This document shows positions 21,797 to 35,359 of a DNA stretch of 64,000 nucleotides, piece by piece. How positions within the stretch are numbered: position 1 is the first letter of the stretch; the number at the start of each line of letters is the position of its first letter. Under the pieces are notes generated by a model that worked only from the letters and a program-made list of their open reading frames with translations, searched no databases and was not told where the DNA came from. Source of the stretch: Escherichia coli (GTDB taxonomy: Bacteria; Pseudomonadota; Gammaproteobacteria; Enterobacterales; Enterobacteriaceae); the NCBI RefSeq assembly GCF_009931435.1, contig NZ_CP043414.1. One strand, given 5' to 3'. Position numbers and translations under genes: made by a program.

Positions 21797-21869
21797 GTTA
21801 AAAACTTTCCTGTTTTCAACGGGGCTCTCCCGCTGAATATTCGCGCGTTAATTAAAATCAGGAATGAAA

Positions 21870-22925
21870 ATGAAAAAGAGCACTCTGGCATTAGTGGTGA
21901 TGGGCATTGTGGCATCGGCATCCGTACAGGCCGCAGAAATATATAACAAAGACGGTAATAAACTGGATATCTATGGCAAAGTTAAAGCCATGCATTATAT
22001 GAGCGATAATGACAGTAAAGATGGCGACCAAAGTTATATCCGTTTTGGTTTTAAAGGCGAAACACAAATTAACGATCAACTGACCGGTTATGGTCGCTGG
22101 GAAGCAGAGTTTGCCGGAAATAAAGCAGAGAGTGATACTGCTCAGCAAAAAACGCGTCTTGCCTTTGCCGGGTTGAAATATAAAGATTTGGGTTCTTTCG
22201 ACTATGGTCGTAACCTGGGGGCGCTGTATGACGTGGAAGCATGGACCGATATGTTCCCGGAATTCGGCGGCGATTCCTCCGCGCAGACAGACAACTTTAT
22301 GACCAAACGCGCCAGCAGTCTGGCAACGTATCGGAACACCGACTTCTTCGGCGTTATCGATGGTCTGAACTTAACCCTGCAATATCAAGGAAAAAACGAA
22401 AACCGCGACGTTAAAAAGCAAAACGGTGATGGCTTCGGCACGTCATTGACATATGACTTTGGCGGCAGCGATTTTGCCATTAGTGGGGCCTATACCAACT
22501 CCGATCGCACCAACGAGCAGAACCTGCAAAGCCGTGGCACGGGCAAGCGTGCAGAAGCATGGGCAACAGGCCTGAAATACGATGCCAATAATATTTACCT
22601 GGCAACTTTCTATTCTGAAACGCGTAAAATGACGCCAATCTCTGGTGGTTTTGCCAATAAGACGCAGAACTTTGAAGCAGTCGCTCAATACCAATTCGAC
22701 TTTGGCCTGCGTCCATCGCTGGGTTATGTCTTATCGAAAGGGAAAGATATTGAGGGCATCGGTGATGAGGATCTGGTCAATTATATTGATGTCGGTGCTA
22801 CATATTATTTCAACAAAAATATGTCGGCCTTTGTTGATTATAAAATCAACCAACTGGACAGCGATAACAAATTAAATATTAATAATGATGATATTGTCGC
22901 GGTTGGGATGACCTATCAGTTTTAA
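21870..22925 (+). CDS. phoE: PhoE, phosphate-starvation outer membrane porin
   Basis: Track ORF begins MKMKKSTL; PhoE precursor is 351 aa starting [21 protein letters not shown], so start at 21870 (AGGA SD 7 nt upstream). Confidence 0.95.
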
Positions 22926-22933
22926 TGGAGATT

Positions 22934-22960
22934 GCCGGATGCGGCGCATCCGGCACTTTT
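22934..22960. terminator. Hairpin terminator between convergent phoE and crl
   Basis: GCCGGATGCG...CGCATCCGGC perfect stem followed by ACTTTT, immediately after the phoE stop. Confidence 0.5.
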
Positions 22961-22963
22961 CAC

Positions 22964-23422
<459 letters not shown>

Positions 23423-24667
23423 TTAACACAATCGTTTTTCGATCCAGCTCGTGATTTCCTGAAGACCTTTGTCAAAATTCCGATACACCGGATTAAATGG
23501 AATCTCTAACAATTTACCATCAGCAGATGATGAGGTGATTAAGCGTGAGTCCTCTTCCGGGCTGAACGGATCGTTCTTCCAGTAGCCTGATAACATTGGC
23601 GTCGGGCAGCGACGGCCCAGCAATCCTTGCACTTTTAATGAATAACGATTCAGTTCCACACGCAACGCTTCATCGGAAGCATCATGCATCCCCAAACGAC
23701 TCGCCAGAACGTCAAGATACATTTCCGGCACCTGTTGCTGGCACTTAAAATCACTCAACAGGGTATGAACTACCGGACCAAGACAAGCAACCGCTTTCAG
23801 ACGCGGCGATTCAAGATATGCCAGACGCACAGCAACGTTAGCGCCAAAACGGAAACCAAAGGCCGCGACACGGGTGTGATCCACCCACGGGACGTTAGGC
23901 AGCGCCTTTAAGACGTGCTGATGCAACAGGCTGGAGTCCTGGGTGAGCTTCCATTTTGAAGAAAAGCCCACCGACGGCATATCAATAGTCAGCATCGCAA
24001 TGCCGCGCGGGGCAAAATAACGTTCATACAGACTGTAATAATCCGTCTGCATCGCATCCAGACCACCACACATTAATACCGTCGGGAACGGGCCATCGCC
24101 TTTCGGCATATGCAAAAAGCCGGTGATGGGCGCACCGCCTGGTACGGTAAACTCCATCTGCCGCATCGTGCCCGGCAGACGTTGGGCGGCCTCTTCATAG
24201 GCACGGTTTGACAAAGCCTGCGCTTGCTCGGCCAGGTCATCCCCTTTCAGATGAGGATAGGCGGCAATGTTGTACAACGTGGCCGCATGCAGCCAGTGAC
24301 GACCACTGAGTTGTGGATCTTCTTCCGCACAAGCTTTTTGTTGCCACACCATCGCCTGGGTGGCCCATTCATAAATCCAGTTGCCGCCGCGGTAGCCAAT
24401 CACCGTATCGTATAAATCATCGTCGGTACGTTCAGCATCGCTCATCACAATACGCGCCTGAACGTCGAGGATTTCACGTGGGTCAATGCCGCGCCAGATC
24501 CACATCAGACGGTTTATCATGCGATACCAGTGGGGGATGGTTTTACCATCAAGGGCCGACTGCACAGGCGGTTGTGCGCCGTGATTAAAGCGGCGGACTA
24601 GCGTCGAGGTTTCAGGATGTTTAAAGCGGGGTTTGAACAGGGTTTCGCTCAGGTTTGCCTGTGTCAT
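23423..24667 (-). CDS. frsA: FrsA, fermentation/respiration switch esterase
   Basis: 414 aa, recognised as FrsA ([27 protein letters not shown]...). Confidence 0.95.
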
Positions 24668-24758
24668 GGATGCAGCCTCCAGAATACTTACTGGAAACTA
24701 TTGTAACCTGCCTGAAGTTAAAAAGAACAACGCCCGGCAGTGCCAGGCGTTGAAAAGA

Positions 24759-25217
24759 TTAGCGACCGGAGATTGGCGGGACGAATACGACGCCCATATC
24801 CCACGGCTGTTCAATCCAGGTATCTTGTGGGATATCAACAACATAATCATCAACCAGCGGACGACCTGCCGGTTTAGCGAAGATGGTGACAAAGTGCGCT
24901 TTTGGATACATTTCACGAATCGCAACCGCAGTACCGCCGGTATCCACCAGATCATCAATAACGATGAAGCCTTCGCCATCGCCTTCTGCGCGTTTCAGCA
25001 CTTTAAGCTCGCGCTGGTTGTCGTGATCGTAGCTGGAAATACAAACGGTATCGACATGACGAATACCCAGTTCACGCGCCAGTAACGCACCCGGTACCAG
25101 ACCGCCACGGCTTACGGCAATAATGCCTTTCCATTGTTCAGAAGGCATCAGTCGGCTTGCGAGTTTACGTGCATGGATCTGCAACATGTCCCAGGTGACG
25201 ATGTATTTTTCGCTCAT
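24759..25217 (-). CDS. gpt: Gpt, xanthine-guanine phosphoribosyltransferase
   Basis: 152 aa, recognised as Gpt ([23 protein letters not shown]...); hairpin plus T-run terminator on minus strand at about 24720-24752. Confidence 0.95.
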
Positions 25218-25477
25218 GTGAAGTGTCCCAGCCTGTTTATCTACGGCTTAAAAAGTGTTCGAGGGGAAAATAGGTTGCGCGAGATTATAGAGATCTGACG
25301 CACTAAAAACCAGTATTTCACATGAGTCCGCGTCTTTTTACGCACAGCCTCTCCCTGACGCGGGATAAAGTGGTATTCTCAAACATATCTCGCAAGCCTG
25401 TCTTGTGTTGACAACATTTTCTGCTAACCCTGTGACCTGCAATACTGTTTTGCGGGTGATCGACAAGGAGACTTAAC

Positions 25478-26935
25478 GTGTCTGAACTGTCTCAATTATC
25501 TCCACAGCCGCTGTGGGATATTTTTGCCAAAATCTGTTCTATTCCTCACCCGTCCTATCATGAAGAGCAACTCGCTGAATACATTGTTGGTTGGGCAAAA
25601 GAGAAAGGTTTCCATGTCGAACGCGATCAGGTGGGTAATATCCTGATTCGTAAACCTGCTACCGCAGGTATGGAAAATCGTAAACCGGTCGTCTTACAGG
25701 CCCACCTCGATATGGTGCCGCAGAAAAATAACGACACCGTGCATGACTTCACTAAAGATCCTATCCAGCCTTATATTGATGGCGAATGGGTTAAAGCGCG
25801 CGGTACCACGCTGGGCGCGGATAACGGCATTGGTATGGCCTCTGCACTGGCGGTTCTGGCTGACGAAAACGTGGTTCACGGCCCGCTGGAAGTGCTGCTA
25901 ACCATGACCGAAGAAGCCGGTATGGACGGGGCGTTCGGCTTACAGAGCAACTGGTTGCAGGCTGATATTCTGATTAACACCGACTCCGAAGAAGAAGGTG
26001 AAATCTACATGGGTTGTGCTGGGGGTATCGACTTCACCTCCAACCTGCATTTAGATCGTGAAGCCGTTCCGGCTGGTTTTGAAACCTTCAAATTAACCTT
26101 AAAAGGTCTGAAAGGCGGTCACTCCGGCGGTGAAATCCACGTTGGCCTGGGTAACGCGAACAAACTGCTGGTGCGCTTCCTGGCGGGACATGCAGAAGAA
26201 CTGGACCTGCGTCTTATTGATTTCAACGGCGGCACACTGCGTAACGCCATCCCGCGTGAAGCCTTTGCGACCATCGCTGTCGCAGCTGATAAAGTCGACG
26301 CACTGAAAACGCTGGTGAATACCTATCAGGACATCCTGAAAAACGAGCTGGCAGAGAAAGAGAAAAATCTGGCCTTGTTGCTGGACTCTGTTGCGAACGA
26401 TAAAGCTGCCCTGATTGCGAAATCTCGCGATACCTTTATTCGTCTGCTGAACGCCACCCCGAACGGTGTGATCCGCAACTCCGACGTGGCAAAAGGTGTG
26501 GTTGAAACCTCCCTGAACGTCGGTGTCGTGACCATGACCGACAACAACGTAGAAATTCACTGTCTGATCCGTTCTCTGATCGACAGCGGTAAAGACTACG
26601 TGGTGAGCATGCTGGATTCGCTGGGTAAACTGGCTGGCGCGAAAACCGAAGCGAAAGGCGCATATCCTGGCTGGCAGCCGGACGCTAATTCTCCGGTGAT
26701 GCATCTGGTACGTGAAACCTATCAGCGCCTGTTCAACAAGACGCCGAACATCCAGATTATTCACGCGGGCCTGGAATGTGGTCTGTTCAAAAAACCGTAT
26801 CCGGAAATGGACATGGTTTCTATCGGGCCAACCATCACCGGTCCGCACTCTCCGGATGAGCAGGTTCACATCGAAAGCGTAGGCCATTACTGGACACTGC
26901 TGACTGAACTGCTGAAAGAAATTCCGGCGAAGTAA
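25478..26935 (+). CDS. pepD: PepD, cytosolic non-specific dipeptidase
   Basis: 485 aa with GTG start (AAGGAG SD upstream), recognised as PepD (SELSQLSPQPLWDIFAKICSIPHPSYHEEQ...). Confidence 0.95.
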   Translation: MSELSQLSPQPLWDIFAKICSIPHPSYHEEQLAEYIVGWAKEKGFHVERDQVGNILIRKPATAGMENRKPVVLQAHLDMVPQKNNDTVHDFTKDPIQPYIDGEWVKARGTTLGADNGIGMASALAVLADENVVHGPLEVLLTMTEEAGMDGAFGLQSNWLQADILINTDSEEEGEIYMGCAGGIDFTSNLHLDREAVPAGFETFKLTLKGLKGGHSGGEIHVGLGNANKLLVRFLAGHAEELDLRLIDFNGGTLRNAIPREAFATIAVAADKVDALKTLVNTYQDILKNELAEKEKNLALLLDSVANDKAALIAKSRDTFIRLLNATPNGVIRNSDVAKGVVETSLNVGVVTMTDNNVEIHCLIRSLIDSGKDYVVSMLDSLGKLAGAKTEAKGAYPGWQPDANSPVMHLVRETYQRLFNKTPNIQIIHAGLECGLFKKPYPEMDMVSIGPTITGPHSPDEQVHIESVGHYWTLLTELLKEIPAK

Positions 26936-26991
26936 TTTTTTGATTTGCTGCCGGATGGCGTTTGATCGTCTTCCGGCAGTTTCATCCTTTC

Positions 26992-27606
26992 TTATCCTTC
27001 GATAAAAGCCATCCCTGTAAACGTCCGTCGCGGGTTGCCACGTTCAATCTGGTGATGGAACATTCGCCGCTGCGATTTCAGCGCCGCGCTATTTTCCTGT
27101 TGCTGTTGCTCCAGCTTCCAGGCAATCAGCAATCGCGCCAGCCGTTTGTTGGCATGTTGGCTGCGCTCTGACTGAACCTTCACGCTAATCCCGGATGCCA
27201 GATGCGTGGCGCGTACCGCCGAGTCGGTTTTATTGACATGTTGACCGCCCGGCCCCGACGAACGCAGCGTCTCATAACGGATTGCATCCGATTGTTCCTG
27301 CTCATCAGCGGTAAAACGCCCAATGCCCAGAAACCAGTTTTTGCGCCCATGATGAGGCCGATACGGGCTTGGGCAAATCCACTGAATAGTGCCGCACCAA
27401 CTTTCGCTTAATGCCCATGCGTTATCGCCATCCAGAGAAATCAGCGCCGAACGCAGCGTGTCAGAGTAGCGGCCCGTTTCTGTTTCCAGCACCGTTACCG
27501 CGACGTCTTGTCGGGTAGCTTCTTTAATCAACCTGTCCAGCGCCTTTTTCACTGCGAGACAACATTCTTCCGGTCCCTGAGCTGAGGAGAGTTGCAGCAA
27601 GATCAT
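26992..27606 (-). CDS. prfH: PrfH, peptide chain release factor homolog (RF-H), apparently intact
   Basis: Track ORF 26992-27690; start set at in-frame ATG 27606 giving 204 aa ([21 protein letters not shown]...); contains GGQ motif ([17 protein letters not shown]); ATGA start/stop overlap with upstream rtcB-like gene. Confidence 0.8.
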
Positions 27607-28754
27607 CCTTTTTTCCCTCCACTGTTTTTGAGCGTCAGCACCGGACGCAGTCGCGCGGCAGGAATAATTAAACCGGCCTGCACCAGACATTGCACCACAC
27701 TTTCAGCCGATTTATAGGCTTGTGGCGCTTCTTCAAAGATGAGTTGTTTATCGCGACAAATTACCCGACCGCCAAGTTCAGTACGTGAGAGTTGCGTCGC
27801 CGTGTATTTCGCTGCCAGACGCCCTTTACACTCGGTGCGCCCCCATTTACGCCCTGCCCCATGCGCCAGTGAGTGAAGCGTTTTTTCGTTCGCAACAGGT
27901 TTAACCAGCCAGGAGTAATCACCGCGTGAACCGGGAATAATCACCAGACCGTTGTCATCCGGCGTAGCCCCTTTACGGTGTAACCATCCTTGTTGATCGC
28001 CGATTCGACATGCGCTAACAAAGTTATGCGCCACATCCAGAACCGAATTTCCGTTGGCCTTAACTTGTTGCATTATGCGCAAAGCGATCAGCTGGCGATT
28101 AATACGCGCAAACGCCAGCGCATCATCATGTTCCGCAATATAACTTAGCGCGTCGTCACTGCCTTCCGGCAAACCATGATGCGAAAACGAGGCAATATGC
28201 CGCTGTAAAATAGACTGCCCTAAACCACGCGAGCCGCTATGGACCAGCAGTTGCAGATGCTGCGCATCCAGACCTGACAGTGCAAACAGTTCCGCATCGA
28301 TGATTTGATCAATCTGTTGCAGTTCTGCAAAGTGGTTACCGCCACCGATAGAGCCAAGCGCGCAGCGCCACGGATGCTGTGCAAACGCTGACGGCAGGTT
28401 TTCCTCCAGCCAGCTTTCTTCAGCAACGTCATCCAGCGCAGATAATCGCTTTTCAAACTTATCGGCGTTGTATTTACGCGCGAGAATATCTGTTTGCCAT
28501 AGCGCCATACCGCAGCCGATATCATTGCCGACCAGTGCCGGGTAAAAACGGCCTACGGAGAAGAACGCTGCGCCAATCGGATAGCCGCGTCCTGGGTGTA
28601 AATCTGGCATCCCTACGACGCGTTGCATGTCGGGTAAATTTGCCGTGGTGTGTAATTGTTGGATCGCTGAACTCTCGATCCACAGGTCATCAGATGCGAT
28701 GGTAAATACCGCATCGGATAAGGGACGAATATATTTGCCCATGTACCATTCCAT
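27603..28754 (-). CDS. RtcB-family RNA ligase paralog (RtcB2/YkfJ), apparently intact
   Basis: 383 aa; RtcB-like motifs ([34 protein letters not shown]); translationally coupled to prfH. Start could be the fifth codon. Confidence 0.8.
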
Positions 28755-29059
28755 TTATACTCGTCATACTTCAAGTTGCATGTACTGCGACTGCGTTCGT
28801 TCACCCCAGTCACTTACTTTAGTAAGCTCCTGGGGATTCACTCGCTTGTCGCCTTCCTGCAACTCGAATTATTTAGAGTATATAAATATAAAAATCAGGA
28901 AATGGCAGACGAATCCAGGGCAAGAAAAAAAGAATTAATCCTGGAAAGGTCTGCAAAGAGTCATTGATAAAGGATTTTTCATGATTTACCTCCTTGCAGT
29001 TTGTGGAATAAGAAAACGCGCACATATTAGGCGGGCGTTATTTTCATTGCAAGCTGGAT

Positions 29060-29512
29060 TTAGTGTTGCGGTTTATATCGCATATGAAAATTAGTAAACC
29101 ACGCTCCCCGGCATTCAACGCGCTGCTGCTTAACTGTCTGAAAACCATAACGTTCAAAAAAGGGTTTTGCGGTTATGCTGGCATCTACCGTAAGTTCGGA
29201 TTCAGACTTAATCAAAGGTTTTAACAAAGCGCTGGCAACCCCGCAGCGGTTGTATTTCGGATCAACAAATAACATATCGATATAATGCTCAATGCAGGTA
29301 ATAAAGCCGACCAGTTGTGTATTAATCACCGCAACCCGCACTTGTGATTTCGCGAGTTTCTCTTTCCATCGATGTTCATCAATCTGCGCCCAGGCGGCAA
29401 TTTGTTGTGGTGAATAATGCTGACTGGCGGTCATCGTAACCGCTCTAATAAAAATAGCGCATAGCTGCTGAAAATCGCCAGGCTGATAGTCTCTTATTTG
29501 TATATTATTCAT
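29060..29512 (-). CDS. yafP: YafP, GNAT-family acetyltransferase
   Basis: 150 aa recognised as YafP ([21 protein letters not shown]...); ATGA overlap with dinB stop. Confidence 0.85.
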
Positions 29513-30564
29513 AATCCCAGCACCAGTTGTCTTTCCATTTGCGGATCAAGCAACGTCACATGCAGCCCCACCAGTCGCACACCGCGTCCGCCCCGGCGTT
29601 CATCCCAGGTTTTACGCGCAGTGGCGATCAAGTCAGCTTTATTCAGCCGCGGCCAGACGTGTTCCTGGGTGGTTTGCTGAAAATCGTCGAACTTTAATTT
29701 CACCCCCTGGCGGGCAATCAGTAAATCAGGTTTTACCTTTGCCAGACGACGCTCCAGTTCAGGGTAAAGCCGCTCGATGATCGCTTCACATTCAGACCAG
29801 TGATGAATATCTTCCGCCATGGTGCGTTCTACACCGACGGATTTTCGCAACCTTTCGCTGTTAACGTCGCGCTCGTCAATCCCCTGACTACGCTCCCACA
29901 AAATGCGACCAAATTTGCCAAAGCGTTTAAGCAACGTCACCAGATCACACTTTTGTACATCGCCGCAGGTCCGCAGCCCCATCGCTTCCAGTTTTGCCGC
30001 CGAGACTTTGCCGACACCGGGAATTTTTGCCAGCGGTAAGGTTTGCAGAAATGCCGGGACGTCCGCCGGCGTAATCACAAACTGTCCGTTGGGTTTATTC
30101 ATATCAGAGGCGATTTTGGCGAGAAACTTGACCGGCGCAACGCCCGCAGACGCCGTCAGTTGCAGCTCGTTGAAGATCGTCTGGCGGATTTCCTGAGCGA
30201 TAAGGGTCGCAGAGCCGTGGCAATGTACGCTGTCGGTGACGTCGAGATAGGCTTCATCCAGTGACAGCGGCTCAATACGCGATGTGTAGCGAGAGAAGAT
30301 TTCGCGGATATGATTTGACGCTTCTTTGTAGGCGTCAAAGCGCCCTGGAAGCAAGGTGAGATGCGGACACAGTTTGAGCGCCATGCCGGTTGGCATTGCG
30401 CTACGCACGCCAAATTTACGCGCGGGATAATTGGCGGTGCTGATCACCCCCCGGCGTTCGCGGCTGCCGCCAATAGCAATAGGGATATCGCGCAGGGCGG
30501 GATTGTCGCGCATCTCCACCGCGGCGAAAAAGCAGTCCATATCCACATGAATGATTTTACGCAT
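29509..30564 (-). CDS. dinB: DinB, DNA polymerase IV
   Basis: 351 aa, recognised as DinB ([33 protein letters not shown]...). Confidence 0.95.
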
Positions 30565-30578
30565 TGCTCACCTCTCAA

Positions 30579-30598
30579 CACTGGTAAAGTATACAGTG
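30579..30598 (-). promoter_or_regulatory. LexA (SOS) box of dinB
   Basis: Plus strand CACTGGTAAAGTATACAGTG = reverse complement of CACTGTATACTTTACCAGTG, a CTGT-N8-ACAG palindrome about 15 nt upstream of the dinB start. Confidence 0.6.
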
Positions 30599-30634
30599 AT
30601 TTCAGAGTTTGAGAAATGCGTAAAGATTCAGCAT

Positions 30635-31400
30635 TTAACGCGTTCGCTGCGAAAGCACCTGCTGCTTATCCAGCTTTTTCACCAGCGGCTGCACCACCTT
30701 ATCCCCATGCTGACCAAAATATTGATACAACGTATCAGACGCGCTTTTGGTGAGCACCATAATCTCAATGCGCCGGTTACCCGCACTTTGCGGATTTTTC
30801 GTGTCCAGCAGCATCTGGTCCGCCATTGCGCTCACCTGCATCACTTTATCTTCCGGCATCCCGGCCTCTTCCAGCACCCGACGAGCCGAGAGCGCACGAT
30901 CGCCCGAAAGGTTCCAGTTGTTGTAGATATTGCTTTTATAGGCCATCGCATCGGTATGCCCGGTAATAATAATTTTGTTATCGAGCGAGTCGAATACCGG
31001 CGCGAGCTCCACCAGCAGAGTTTTAAAGAACGGCATAATCTTCGCGCTGCCGCGTTCAAACATATTGCGGTTCTGGTCATCTTTAATCAGCACGCGTAAT
31101 CCCTGCGGGACAATCTCCATCTCCAGATTGGCTTCCATATGCGCATCGCGGGCGATGGTGTTGATACTGGTCGCCAGCTCGCCAAGCTCAGTGGCGGACT
31201 TCTTCTTCAGTAGCGCCGTTTTCTCGTTGACGTCGCGGGCTTTTTTCTCCGTCTCTTCCGGCACCGCCACGGTGGCAGGTTTCAGCGGATGCGTCGGGCT
31301 GATTTTATTTAACGGCGATAGCCCGCCGCCATTGAAAATCGACTGCCCGTGCAGCGCGGCGATAATGCTTTCACGCTCGGATTTACTGACGCTGTTGACA
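30635..31400 (-). pseudogene. lafU: lafU (Flag-2 MotB-like) fragment, N-terminally truncated
   Basis: Track ORF 30635-31552; MotB-like OmpA C-terminal domain (ITGHTDAMAYKSNIYNNWNLSGDRALSARRVLEEAG) but no proper TM/N-terminus; its 5' part is antisense to the lfhA fragment. Boundary approximate. Confidence 0.6.
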
Positions 31401-33104
31401 ATCAACTTTATTGTCGTCACCAAAGGGGCTGAGCGTATTTCCGAGGTTTCTGCCCGCTTTACCCTGGACGCGATGCCCGGCAAGCAAATGGCGATTGACG
31501 CCGATCTTAACGCCGGGTTGATCAACCAGGCGCAGGCGCAGACCCGCCGCAAAGATGTTGCCAGCGAGGCCGATTTCTACGGCGCGATGGACGGGGCATC
31601 GAAGTTTGTGCGCGGGGATGCCATCGCCGGGATGATGATTCTGGCGATCAACCTGATTGGCGGCGTTTGTATCGGGATCTTCAAATACAACCTGAGCGCC
31701 GATGCCGCCTTCCAGCAATATGTGCTGATGACCATCGGCGACGGCCTGGTGGCGCAGATCCCGTCCCTGCTGCTTTCCACCGCGGCGGCGATTATCGTCA
31801 CCCGCGTCAGCGACAACGGCGATATTGCCCATGACGTGCGCCACCAGTTGCTGGCAAGCCCGTCGGTGCTCTACACCGCCACCGGGATTATGTTCGTGCT
31901 GGCGGTGGTGCCGGGAATGCCGCACTTCCCGTTCCTGATGTTCAGCGCCCTGCTTGGTTTTACCGGCTGGCGAATGAGCAAACGCCCGCAGGCGGCGGAG
32001 GCGGAAGAGAAAAGCCTCGAAACGCTGACCCGCACCATCACTGAAACCAGCGATCAACAGGTCAGTTGGGAAACCATTCCGCTGATCGAGCCCATCAGTT
32101 TAAGCCTCGGTTACAAGCTGGTGGCGCTGGTGGACAAAGCGCAGGGCAACCCGCTCACCCAGCGTATTCGCGGCGTGCGGCAGGTGATTTCCGACGGCAA
32201 CGGCGTGCTGCTGCCGGAGATCCGCATTCGGGAAAACTTCCGCCTCAAGCCCAGCCAGTACGCCATTTTCATCAACGGCATTAAGGCTGATGAAGCGGAT
32301 ATTCCGGCGGATAAACTGATGGCCCTGCCCTCCAGCGAAACCTACGGCGAGATTGACGGCGTGCTGGGGAACGACCCGGCGTACGGGATGCCGGTGACCT
32401 GGATTCAGCCCGCGCAGAAGGCGAAGGCGCTGAATATGGGGTATCAGGTGATCGACAGCGCCAGCGTAATTGCCACGCATGTGAATAAGATTGTGCGCAG
32501 CTATATTCCTGATTTGTTTAACTATGACGATATTACTCAGCTGCATAACCGTTTGTCGTCAATGGCACCGCGCCTGGCAGAGGATTTGAGTGCGGCGCTG
32601 AATTACAGCCAGTTGCTGAAAGTGTACCGGGCACTGCTGACCGAAGGCGTTTCCCTGCGCGATATCGTCACCATCGCCACCGTGCTGGTCGCCAGTAGCA
32701 CCGTCACCAAAGATCATATTCTGCTGGCGGCCGATGTGCGCCTGGCACTGCGGCGCAGCATTACCCATCCGTTCGTTCGCAAGCAGGAGCTGACGGTGTA
32801 TACGCTGAATAATGAGCTGGAAAATCTGCTGACCAACGTGGTGAATCAGGCGCAACAGGCCGGCAAAGTGATGCTCGATAGCGTGCCGGTTGACCCAAAT
32901 ATGCTCAACCAGTTCCAGAGCACGATGCCGCAGGTGAAGGAGCAGATGAAAGCGGCAGGTAAAGACCCGGTGCTGCTGGTGCCGCCGCAGCTGCGCCCGT
33001 TGCTGGCGCGTTATGCGAGGTTATTTGCGCCGGGGTTGCATGTGCTGTCGTATAACGAAGTGCCGGACGAGCTGGAGTTGAAGATTATGGGGGCGTTGAG
33101 TTGA
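31401..33104 (+). pseudogene. lfhA: lfhA (Flag-2 FlhA-like) fragment lacking its N-terminal membrane region
   Basis: Track ORF 30975-33104; FlhA similarity begins about codon 143 (INFIVVTKGAERISEVSARFTLDAMPGKQMAIDADLNAG), earlier codons are antisense of lafU; no promoter or start at the homology onset. Boundary approximate. Confidence 0.6.
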
Positions 33105-33187
33105 TTGAGGATTCTTTTCCATACTTTGCAGCACCTGACACCATTAATTGACGTCACACTGCAAAGAGACTACGATGACACCATACA

Positions 33188-33487
33188 ATGACGTCATGGA
33201 TTGATAGTATGATTAAGGTCAGCGCGCTAGGCTCTCGTCATAGAAAAACATTCGACGATGTAATGACGGAGCCGCCAAAATCTGGAATTAAATGGGATGA
33301 TGTTGTTGCTCTCATTAAAGCGGTGGGTGGATCAATAAAAAATAACAACGGCTCCAGACGAAAATTTCAGATTGGAACGACCAAATTCAGCACACATGAG
33401 CCGCATCCAAAGAATGTGATGGATAAAGGCGCAGTAGCAGGTCTTAAGGAGTGGTTTGTTAACTGTGTAGGGGTAGATTATGAATAA
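33188..33487 (+). CDS. Putative HicA-like toxin (type II TA), hypothetical
   Basis: 99-aa ORF overlapping the next ORF by 8 nt; C-terminal half (VVALIKAVGGSIKNNNGSRRKFQIGTTKFSTHEPHPKNVMDKGAVAGLKEW) loosely fits the HicA/YcfA pattern. Start uncertain (alternative ATG about 21 nt downstream). Confidence 0.4.
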   Translation: MTSWIDSMIKVSALGSRHRKTFDDVMTEPPKSGIKWDDVVALIKAVGGSIKNNNGSRRKFQIGTTKFSTHEPHPKNVMDKGAVAGLKEWFVNCVGVDYE

Positions 33488-33836
33488 AGCATCGAACATT
33501 ATCACAATTAAAGGTCAACCAGCCGCAGTGACATTTGAAGCCGATATCAACGCATTTCGCGGCAAGTTCCTCAATGTAAACGGTTATTGTGACTTTGTAG
33601 CCACAAGTATTGAGGCATTATATCGTGAAGGCGAAAGCGCTCTGGATGAGTGGATGGCGGATTGTGAAGAGGACGGTATTGCCCCTTTTCGTGAAGAAGA
33701 AGAGCAAAAACGCCTGACGCTTCGTGTGCCGCATCACATCGATTCGCGGCTGACCATCGTCGCCAGACAACATTCCATTTCAAAAAACCAGCTCATTATT
33801 GATGTCTTAGAACGTGAGTTTTCAGCCCAGATGTAA
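33480..33836 (+). CDS. Putative HicB-like antitoxin with C-terminal ribbon-helix-helix
   Basis: 118 aa; N-terminal HicB/UPF0150-like segment and C-terminal RHH-like segment (KRLTLRVPHHIDSRLTIVARQHSISKNQLIIDVLEREF). Confidence 0.5.
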   Translation: MNKASNIITIKGQPAAVTFEADINAFRGKFLNVNGYCDFVATSIEALYREGESALDEWMADCEEDGIAPFREEEEQKRLTLRVPHHIDSRLTIVARQHSISKNQLIIDVLEREFSAQM

Positions 33837-33858
33837 ACAGGTCGTCAATATTACCCAT

Positions 33859-34608
33859 TTACAAAATCGTCTCTTCCGTCAAAATCCGCCGCGCGCCTAA
33901 AAAATGATCCTGCCAGAAAGGTTCAGCTAACCGACTTACCCGAATGGTTTCCCCGGTGCGCGGCGACTCGATAAACTGACCGTCTCCCAGATACACGCCC
34001 ATATGGTCGGCAATCTCGCGGCTGTGAATATGGAAAAACAGCAAATCTCCCCGGCGCAGGTCGTTATTTGCCACAATGGTTGCCCGACGGTAGTGATACA
34101 TCTCATTGGCCGTGCGCGGGAGTTTCGCCTCGAGGATCTTGTTGTAGGCATAAAAAACCAACCCGCTACAGTCGAAGCCTTTATCAGGCCGCGTACCTCC
34201 CCAGACGTAAGGCTTACCAAGCTGCTGCTCCAGACGGTGAATCGCTACTTCGGTGATGTTATGCAGATGGTCGCTGCTTAAGAAATGGTTGTTTTCCGCC
34301 AGCGCCTGCCAATGTTTATCGCTCAACTTCAACGGTGCAGGGAACCACTCAGGATGCTGTTTTATCTGCTCCCGGTTGTGCTGGCGCAGCGCCCTTCTGC
34401 TTTGTGCATCGCCTTCCACAATGTAGCTGGCCTGTTTTTTCAGATGCGCGTGGTATCGCTTTAGCAATCGCGTACGGTTTTGCATCCGCTGGCGGGCGGC
34501 GTAGCTGAAAGAGATATGTGATGCGGTGGCGCTGGCAAATGAAGAAAACGGCAAGCAAAGCAACAATAATCCCGACAACACAAAAGAGGGAATCGACGGC
34601 AAAGACAT
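33859..34608 (-). CDS. yafL: YafL, NlpC/P60-family lipoprotein endopeptidase
   Basis: Track ORF 33859-34668; YafL is 249 aa starting MSLPSIPSFVLSGLLLLCLPF, so start at 34608; NlpC/P60 Cys motif (GFDCSGLVFYAY). Confidence 0.85.
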   Translation of the reverse strand: MSLPSIPSFVLSGLLLLCLPFSSFASATASHISFSYAARQRMQNRTRLLKRYHAHLKKQASYIVEGDAQSRRALRQHNREQIKQHPEWFPAPLKLSDKHWQALAENNHFLSSDHLHNITEVAIHRLEQQLGKPYVWGGTRPDKGFDCSGLVFYAYNKILEAKLPRTANEMYHYRRATIVANNDLRRGDLLFFHIHSREIADHMGVYLGDGQFIESPRTGETIRVSRLAEPFWQDHFLGARRILTEETIL

Positions 34609-34817
34609 TCTCAATAATGGCTGGTCATGCATTGATGTTGCAGTGTATCCCGGCCCGTACCTGAACAAACTTAATAAACCATTATTATAAAATTAATAAA
34701 TATATTTCAGTTAATTATGTAAAAACATCCGTTTATTAAATTACTCATGGATTGTCGTTGTTGCTCATTTGAGCTACAATTCAAGCTGAATAAATATACA
34801 GCACAGGAGATACCCCA

Positions 34818-35078
34818 ATGGCTGCTAACGCGTTTGTTCGCGCCCGAATCGATGAAGATCTGAAGAATCAGGCGGCGGACGTACTGGCCGGGATGGGGCT
34901 GACCATCTCTGACCTGGTTCGCATAACCCTCACAAAAGTCGCGCGTGAAAAGGCATTGCCGTTTGATTTACGCGAGCCTAATCAATTAACCATTCAATCA
35001 ATTAAAAACAGCGAAGCTGGCGTTGATGTTCATAAGGCCAAAGACGCCGATGATTTATTTGATCAATTAGGAATTTAA
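34818..35078 (+). CDS. dinJ: DinJ antitoxin
   Basis: 86 aa recognised as DinJ (MAANAFVRARIDEDLKNQAADVLAGMGLTISDLVRI...). Confidence 0.9.
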   Translation: MAANAFVRARIDEDLKNQAADVLAGMGLTISDLVRITLTKVAREKALPFDLREPNQLTIQSIKNSEAGVDVHKAKDADDLFDQLGI

Positions 35079-35080
35079 AT

Positions 35081-35359
35081 ATGATTCAAAGGGATATTGA
35101 ATACTCGGGACAATTTTCAAAGGATGTAAAACTTGCACAAAAGCGTCATAATGATATGAATAAATTGAAATATCTTATGACGCTTCTTATCAATAATACT
35201 TTACCACTTCCAGCTGTTTATAAAGACCACCCGCTGCAAGGTTCATGGAAAGGTTATCGCGATGCTCATGTTGAACCGGACTGGATCCTGATTTACAAAC
35301 TTACCGATAAACTTTTACGATTTGAGAGAACTGGAACTCACGCGGCGCTATTTGGGTAA
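35081..35359 (+). CDS. yafQ: YafQ toxin (RelE-family mRNA interferase)
   Basis: 92 aa recognised as YafQ; 2 nt after the dinJ stop. Confidence 0.9.
   Translation: MIQRDIEYSGQFSKDVKLAQKRHNDMNKLKYLMTLLINNTLPLPAVYKDHPLQGSWKGYRDAHVEPDWILIYKLTDKLLRFERTGTHAALFG

Follow-up and report, generated by a model that had tools for sequence, protein, structure and literature searches.

The dinB-yafP operon and its predicted expression

The 64-kb stretch of Escherichia coli DNA analyzed here (“the window”) carries dinB and yafP as directly adjoining genes on the minus strand. According to the ORF listing and the sequence, dinB occupies 30564..29509 and encodes 351 amino acids, yafP occupies 29512..29060 and encodes 150, and both reading frames are intact. 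The two genes have in common the ATGA at 29512..29509, in which the TGA stop of dinB lies over the ATG start of yafP, exactly as described in an earlier reading of the letters alone (“the sequence-only reading”). The features of the operon are the following:

30588..30615, minus strand: dinB promoter-like site with -35 TTCTCA, a 16-nt spacer, and -10 TATACT (consensus scan)
30581..30596, minus strand: LexA (SOS) box CTGTATACTTTACCAG over the -10 hexamer (pattern search, K-12 alignment)
30568..30574, minus strand: dinB Shine-Dalgarno sequence GAGGTGA (duplex with the 16S 3' end of -7.1 kcal/mol, equal to K-12)
29509..30564, minus strand: dinB, DNA polymerase IV, 351 aa, ending in QLVLGL (ORF, Pfam, K-12 identity)
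29509..29515, minus strand: single ATTATGA copy containing the ATGA stop/start overlap (sequence; alignments with K-12, E. whittamii, and other loci)
29060..29512, minus strand: yafP, GNAT N-acetyltransferase, 150 aa, without a usable Shine-Dalgarno sequence of its own (ORF, Pfam, anti-SD pairing)

The Pfam domains of the dinB product (PF00817 (IMS, E = 4.8e-51), PF11798, PF21999, and PF11799, i.e., IMS, IMS_HHH, and IMS_C) identify it as a Y-family polymerase, DNA polymerase IV. It is identical to K-12 DinB at 349/351 residues, the two changes being E168D and M210T, and its C-terminus (...QLVLGL), the beta-clamp-binding motif, is kept whole at the junction with yafP. YafP, with matches to PF13673 (E = 2.4e-19), PF13508, and PF00583, is a GNAT N-acetyltransferase that differs from K-12 YafP at 13/150 residues (137/150 identical). 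Its gene has the same synteny as in K-12, with dinB on one side and the rtcB/prfH-pepD region on the other.

The LexA-box-like site CTGTATACTTTACCAG, found by pattern search at 30596..30581 on the minus strand, fits a CTGT-N8-ACAG-like pattern and overlaps the promoter-like -10 hexamer. Pairwise alignment shows that it is identical to the K-12 box, so the claim of the sequence-only reading that the LexA box is intact holds. In the same alignment, the promoter-like site differs from K-12 by one substitution, which falls within the -35/-10 spacer; that the site at 30588..30615 functions as the dinB promoter is our assumption from what is known of K-12. With a LexA box over this promoter, the operon is a predicted member of the SOS (LexA) regulon. 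No convincing internal promoter or terminator was found within dinB-yafP of the window.

The best anti-SD pairing upstream of yafP amounts to -4.0 kcal/mol in the window, where it lies directly against the ATG, and to +0.4 kcal/mol in K-12, where yafP starts 9 nt past the yafO stop without a Shine-Dalgarno sequence; the value for dinB is -7.1 kcal/mol. Because this pairing is weak, yafP lacks a ribosome-binding site of its own in both forms of the operon. The dinB/yafP pair of the window thus has the hallmarks expected of a termination-reinitiation pair, namely, a stop/start overlap and a downstream gene without its own Shine-Dalgarno sequence, and we infer that YafP is most likely made by re-initiation after dinB.

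In the mechanism that we propose, LexA would repress the dinB promoter until DNA damage or stationary phase lifts the repression, and a single mRNA would then encode both Pol IV (dinB) and the GNAT acetyltransferase YafP. Ribosomes would start at the strong dinB Shine-Dalgarno sequence and stop at the UGA inside AUGA, where some of them would re-initiate at yafP. YafP output would thereby be tied to DinB output, at a fixed ratio below that of Pol IV. In the two-gene strain CFT073, dinB and yafP are co-transcribed, and a YafP-YFP fusion is induced by mitomycin C and in stationary phase (PMC3105422). The authors of that study (Gutierrez et al. 2011) speak loosely of “frameshifting” at dinB-yafP. 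A programmed -1 frameshift that would yield a DinB-YafP fusion was considered and rejected, since no slippery heptamer precedes the stop (G GGA TTA TGA).

Presence and absence of the yafNO cassette

K-12 annotation gives the order dinB-yafN-yafO-yafP, which is the order that the sequence-only reading had given. Pairwise alignment of the window with K-12, suggested there as a check, contains one clean 759-bp gap on the window side, exactly between dinB and yafP. In addition, tblastn and blastn searches with K-12 YafN/YafO and yafN/yafO as queries returned no homologue better than chance in the whole 64-kb window. Altogether, the single indel and these searches confirm that the yafNO toxin-antitoxin (TA) pair is absent from the window.

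In K-12, the cassette lies between two identical 7-bp direct repeats, ATTATGA, of which one includes the dinB stop and the other the yafP start. Since the window has a single copy, the endpoints of the indel cannot be placed within the 7 bp. As such, the structure of the junction is compatible with either a precise deletion or an insertion accompanied by a 7-bp duplication. A third ATTATGA copy lies in the dinB-yafN spacer of K-12, 39 bp past the dinB stop (locus L001, 5987-5993); were it to recombine with the copy next to yafP, a different junction would result, and none of the genomes sampled has this junction. GC content was considered as a marker of foreign origin (cassette, 42.0%; yafP, 43.3%; dinB, 54.2%) and is uninformative on the origin of the cassette, because yafP is as AT-rich as the cassette itself.

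A third allelic state, dinB-yafN-yafP, was found in Escherichia sp. E1V33 and E. coli MEI003. Both keep yafN, but a deletion between TTAT microhomologies has removed 379 bp of yafO, which leaves a yafO remnant of 10 codons whose TGA overlaps the yafP ATG (E1V33, locus L004, 4969-5001; MEI003, locus L024, 2338-2370). This loss of yafO alone shows that the locus is subject to microhomology deletions and that the antitoxin can outlast its toxin.

To place the window among E. coli, we surveyed 5,426 complete genomes, 5,416 of which hold the locus. A 400-bp query with the direct dinB-yafP junction at its centre is matched without interruption in 2,569 genomes (47%), and the K-12 yafNO cassette is present in 2,847 (52%). 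Added together, the counts equal the 5,416 genomes with the locus; therefore, the two states appear to exclude each other, and genomes of the two-gene type do not as a rule have yafNO at another site. For the yafN-only state the survey gives an upper bound only, of at most 16 genomes with a partial cassette among the 5,426. The sequence-only reading had proposed a presence/absence polymorphism of the TA module and a population survey of this junction; the polymorphism is evident in the counts.

Plasmids were considered as a vehicle for yafNO and rejected, as the 14 plasmid matches give no evidence for a plasmid-borne cassette. They include K-12/laboratory-culture plasmids of ~214-242 kb in which yafP adjoins the cassette, probably F' factors in our view, as well as multi-megabase records filed as plasmids. 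The two divergent matches that we inspected carry few annotations and resemble chromosomal fragments of low quality.

The TA-free dinB-yafP arrangement has been known since 2011. Gutierrez et al. (2011; PMC3105422) reported only dinB and yafP in 40% of sequenced strains and in 50% of the ECOR collection, found the two genes “always fused” with an ATGA overlap in two-gene strains, and used the two-gene strain CFT073 as their model. In the review of Fraikin et al. (2020; PMC7167474), dinB-yafP of UTI89-like strains is an “undisturbed bicistronic operon.” The operon of CFT073 and UTI89 resembles that of the window in gene order, ATGA overlap, LexA-controlled promoter, and ATTATGA junction (PMC3105422, PMC7167474); the window differs in that its allele belongs to a deep haplotype. 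The four-gene operon of K-12 has the same promoter, LexA box, dinB, yafP, and flanking genes as the window, including the upstream lfhA'-'lafU scar. It differs in the extra 759 bp with the yafNO type II TA pair between ATTATGA repeats, in the position of yafP 9 nt past the yafO stop, and in the decay of rtcB (ykfJ) and prfH, both of which are intact in the window.

Direction of change at the dinB-yafP junction

Two views of this locus have been published. Because E. fergusonii was reported with four genes, Gutierrez et al. (2011; PMC3105422) inferred a four-gene ancestor and at least three deletions between ATGA sequences, whereas in the account of Fraikin et al. (2020; PMC7167474), yafNO is an insertion on the 3' side of dinB. 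For the window, the first view would mean that its lineage lost yafNO secondarily, by recombination or slippage between the ATTATGA repeats. The exact 7-bp direct repeats that flank the four-gene cassette are equally what a precise deletion would use, and the reported four-gene state of E. fergusonii (PMC3105422) also speaks for such a loss.

The outgroups point the other way. In E. marmotae, dinB and yafP are joined by ATGA; in Citrobacter amalonaticus, the TAA stop of dinB is followed after 5 nt by the yafP ATG; and in a Kluyvera contig, the same spacing is 2 nt after a TAA stop. All three are free of the TA pair, which argues against secondary loss, and the C. amalonaticus and Kluyvera loci also have the downstream pepD-gpt-frsA synteny in common. 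Because of these arrangements, tight dinB-yafP adjacency predates Escherichia, and the outgroups indicate that the arrangement of the window is the ancestral type and that of K-12 the derived one. The sequence-only reading treated K-12 as the reference state, against which the outgroups speak. Among further species representatives, Escherichia sp. MOD1-EC7003 has two genes. Four genes are present in E. whittamii and in the SCPM-O-B-8794 genome, which stands for a separate species in the GTDB genome collection, and these two would again fit a four-gene ancestor. The outgroup loci came from a protein search, which also identified a YafP homologue in Yokenella (P0037), and from contig look-ups, and this sample is without E. 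fergusonii and E. albertii. A scan of species representatives with exact YafP peptide patterns gave at least 5 loci; neither E. fergusonii nor E. albertii was among them, nor was the representative of E. coli.

Synonymous divergence provides a second line of evidence. Across 11 four-gene alleles, dS averages 0.183 for dinB, 0.084 for yafN, 0.035 for yafO, and 0.138 for yafP. The values for yafNO, which rest on these 11 alleles and ~145 synonymous sites, are thus 2-5 times below those of the flanking genes, and diversity among four-gene alleles has a trough over yafO. The deficit extends to comparisons between species, which weighs further against secondary loss: between K-12 and E. whittamii, 75/345 synonymous sites differ in the flanks and 8/144 in yafNO (Fisher p = 5e-6). 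Since yafNO is less diverged than its flanks, the common ancestor of the cassette is younger, as expected if the cassette spread between lineages by recombination. Alternatively, constraint on synonymous sites or homogenizing recombination could lower the dS of yafNO.

Some of the allele data also speak for a loss. In trees built from 300 bp of sequence to the left and right of the junction, two-gene alleles fall among four-gene ones. Specifically, the flanks of the two-gene strains S5 and SCAID are identical or nearly so to those of the four-gene strain APEC O1:K1:H7. Such near-identity across states means that the state changed repeatedly or was exchanged, and that recent switching occurs. 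The separate yafO-only deletion between TTAT microhomologies in E1V33 and MEI003 likewise counts in favour of loss at this locus.

The history of the allele in the window, however, fits poorly with such a loss. Its dinB has a dS of at least 0.25 to all sampled alleles except that of strain RMDEC465 (0.08), the only strain with which the window clusters, and the sample contains no close four-gene relative. The depth of this haplotype exceeds the yafO divergences (maximum dS 0.087) and the mean yafN divergence (dS 0.078, with a maximum of 0.21). At the nucleotide level, dinB-yafP is ~6% diverged from almost all complete E. coli, with 95-99% identity in 18/5,424 records. We therefore regard secondary loss in the lineage of the window, on the model of Gutierrez et al. 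(2011), as unlikely, though it deserves more weight than the other alternatives considered below.

The divergence is not confined to the operon. The segments lfhA-lafU-dinB-yafP-rtcB-prfH and dinJ-yafL (~27000-35300) are only 93-95% identical to K-12, and dS between the window and K-12 is 0.33 for dinB, comparable to between-species values. The adjoining pepD-gpt-frsA segment (21800-27000) is 97% identical to K-12 and 99% to RMDEC465. Judging from these identities, ~27000-35300 appears to be a deep or introgressed haplotype block.

We consider it very likely that the window carries the common two-gene, LexA-controlled dinB operon, with yafP coupled by re-initiation; that this is the TA-free ancestral type, to which yafNO would be a later insertion with duplication of the 7-bp ATTATGA; and that this very old haplotype probably never had the cassette. 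The direction of change, insertion rather than deletion, is what we infer from the outgroups and the divergence, and we hold with moderate confidence that the architecture of the window is of the ancestral type and probably never carried yafNO. After its insertion, the cassette would have spread among Escherichia lineages, to become polymorphic at ~50%.

On balance, we also lean towards a broader reversal of the 2011 polarity. In this account, dinB-ATGA-yafP is the ancestral arrangement in Escherichia; a younger yafNO landed exactly at the stop/start overlap, hitch-hikes on the SOS promoter, spread by homologous recombination among Escherichia species and haplotypes, and was lost again by precise or partial deletion, at a frequency near 50%, with the window never having carried it. 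The insertion view had already been voiced in the 2020 review, so what is added here is quantitative support, namely, the evidence for a TA-free ancestral form and for a cassette younger than the genes on either side.

Functional meaning and neighbouring features

The polymorphism might nevertheless have consequences, and the sequence-only reading suggested that the absence of yafNO may alter SOS-linked persistence or mutagenesis. A difference in YafP dosage in this strain would be a further form of the same idea. In K-12, yafNO is under the LexA-controlled dinB promoter (PMC7167474), and manipulation of yafNO has probable polar effects on yafP (PMC5120126). Moreover, because K-12 yafP lies 9 nt past the yafO stop without a Shine-Dalgarno sequence, its translation is coupled to yafO and not to dinB, so that YafP dosage could differ between the two forms. 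However, according to the 2020 review, deletion of yafNO in K-12 has left SOS induction, adaptive mutation, and fluoroquinolone survival all unaffected (PMC7167474), which leaves the suggestion about persistence and mutagenesis unsupported. In addition, about half of natural E. coli are without the cassette, and CFT073, itself a two-gene strain, does produce YafP in an SOS-inducible manner (PMC3105422). As such, we find a functional effect of the missing cassette in this strain improbable. An assembly or sequencing artefact that collapsed the cassette, as a short direct repeat could in principle cause by misleading an assembler, can be dismissed for practical purposes, given the identical junction in 2,569 complete genomes, Escherichia sp. 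MOD1-EC7003, and E. marmotae and the intactness of both reading frames.

As for YafP itself, it has been proposed, from CFT073 genetics and not from biochemistry, that its acetyltransferase activity modifies nitroaromatic genotoxins or their metabolites and that Pol IV bypasses the resulting adducts (PMC3105422). Its gene is less conserved than dinB (dN/dS ~0.23 vs 0.02 among four-gene alleles) and is annotated as a pseudogene with an internal stop in one O121 strain; selection on yafP appears relaxed or diversifying.

Beyond correct annotation, the significance of the window's junction is small. The TA-free arrangement is normal and not a lesion of the SOS operon, and K-12 should thus not serve as the reference state. 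As an example from nature, the locus shows cleanly how a TA cassette can be inserted where two genes are translationally coupled. Since three states segregate (two-gene, four-gene, and yafN-only) and the cassette appears younger, it could be used to study the gain, spread, and decay of chromosomal TA pairs. By the description in the 2020 review (PMC7167474), relA-mazEF-mazG and relA-mazG are comparable, in that a TA pair likewise lies between two cistrons of a housekeeping operon and is missing in many strains; the locus and the TA family differ from those of dinB-yafNOP.

Downstream of the operon, on the minus strand at 26992-28754, the gene for an RtcB-family RNA ligase (383-aa ORF) overlaps that for the release-factor homologue PrfH, and both are intact; in K-12, ykfJ and prfH are all that is left of them, as pseudogenes. 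The interval from yafP to rtcB contains an ERIC/IRU-type repeat at 28798-28841, which matches the ERIC1R and ERIC2 primer sequences with 2 and 1 mismatches, respectively. A small ORF of 15 codons, MKNPLSMTLCRPFQD, with a perfect Shine-Dalgarno sequence, CAAGGAGGTAAATCATG, occupies 28935-28998 on the minus strand, 66 nt 3' of the yafP stop and 5' of rtcB-prfH. It occurs at the same position, with a near-identical peptide, in 25/25 Escherichia loci including E. marmotae, next to a yafP that is ~6% diverged, and is not in the K-12 RefSeq feature table. We note that its product may serve the rtcB-prfH operon as a leader peptide or be a small protein of that operon.

Upstream of dinB, the lfhA'-'lafU junction (30635-33104) carries at ~31406 the same Flag-2 lateral-flagella deletion scar as K-12. 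Genomes in which Flag-2 is intact (RMDEC465, E. whittamii, E1V33, and MOD1-EC7003) align only up to 31406, and K-12 aligns through. We regard the 709-aa ORF on the plus strand at 30975-33104 as a probable artefact that runs from antisense lafU into the lfhA remnant. Farther along, a second LexA-box-like site, CTGTATATTTATTCAG, lies at 34786-34801 on the minus strand, just upstream of the dinJ-yafQ TA pair, as placed by the alignment with K-12. One TA pair with a LexA-box-like site in front of it is thus still present in the window.
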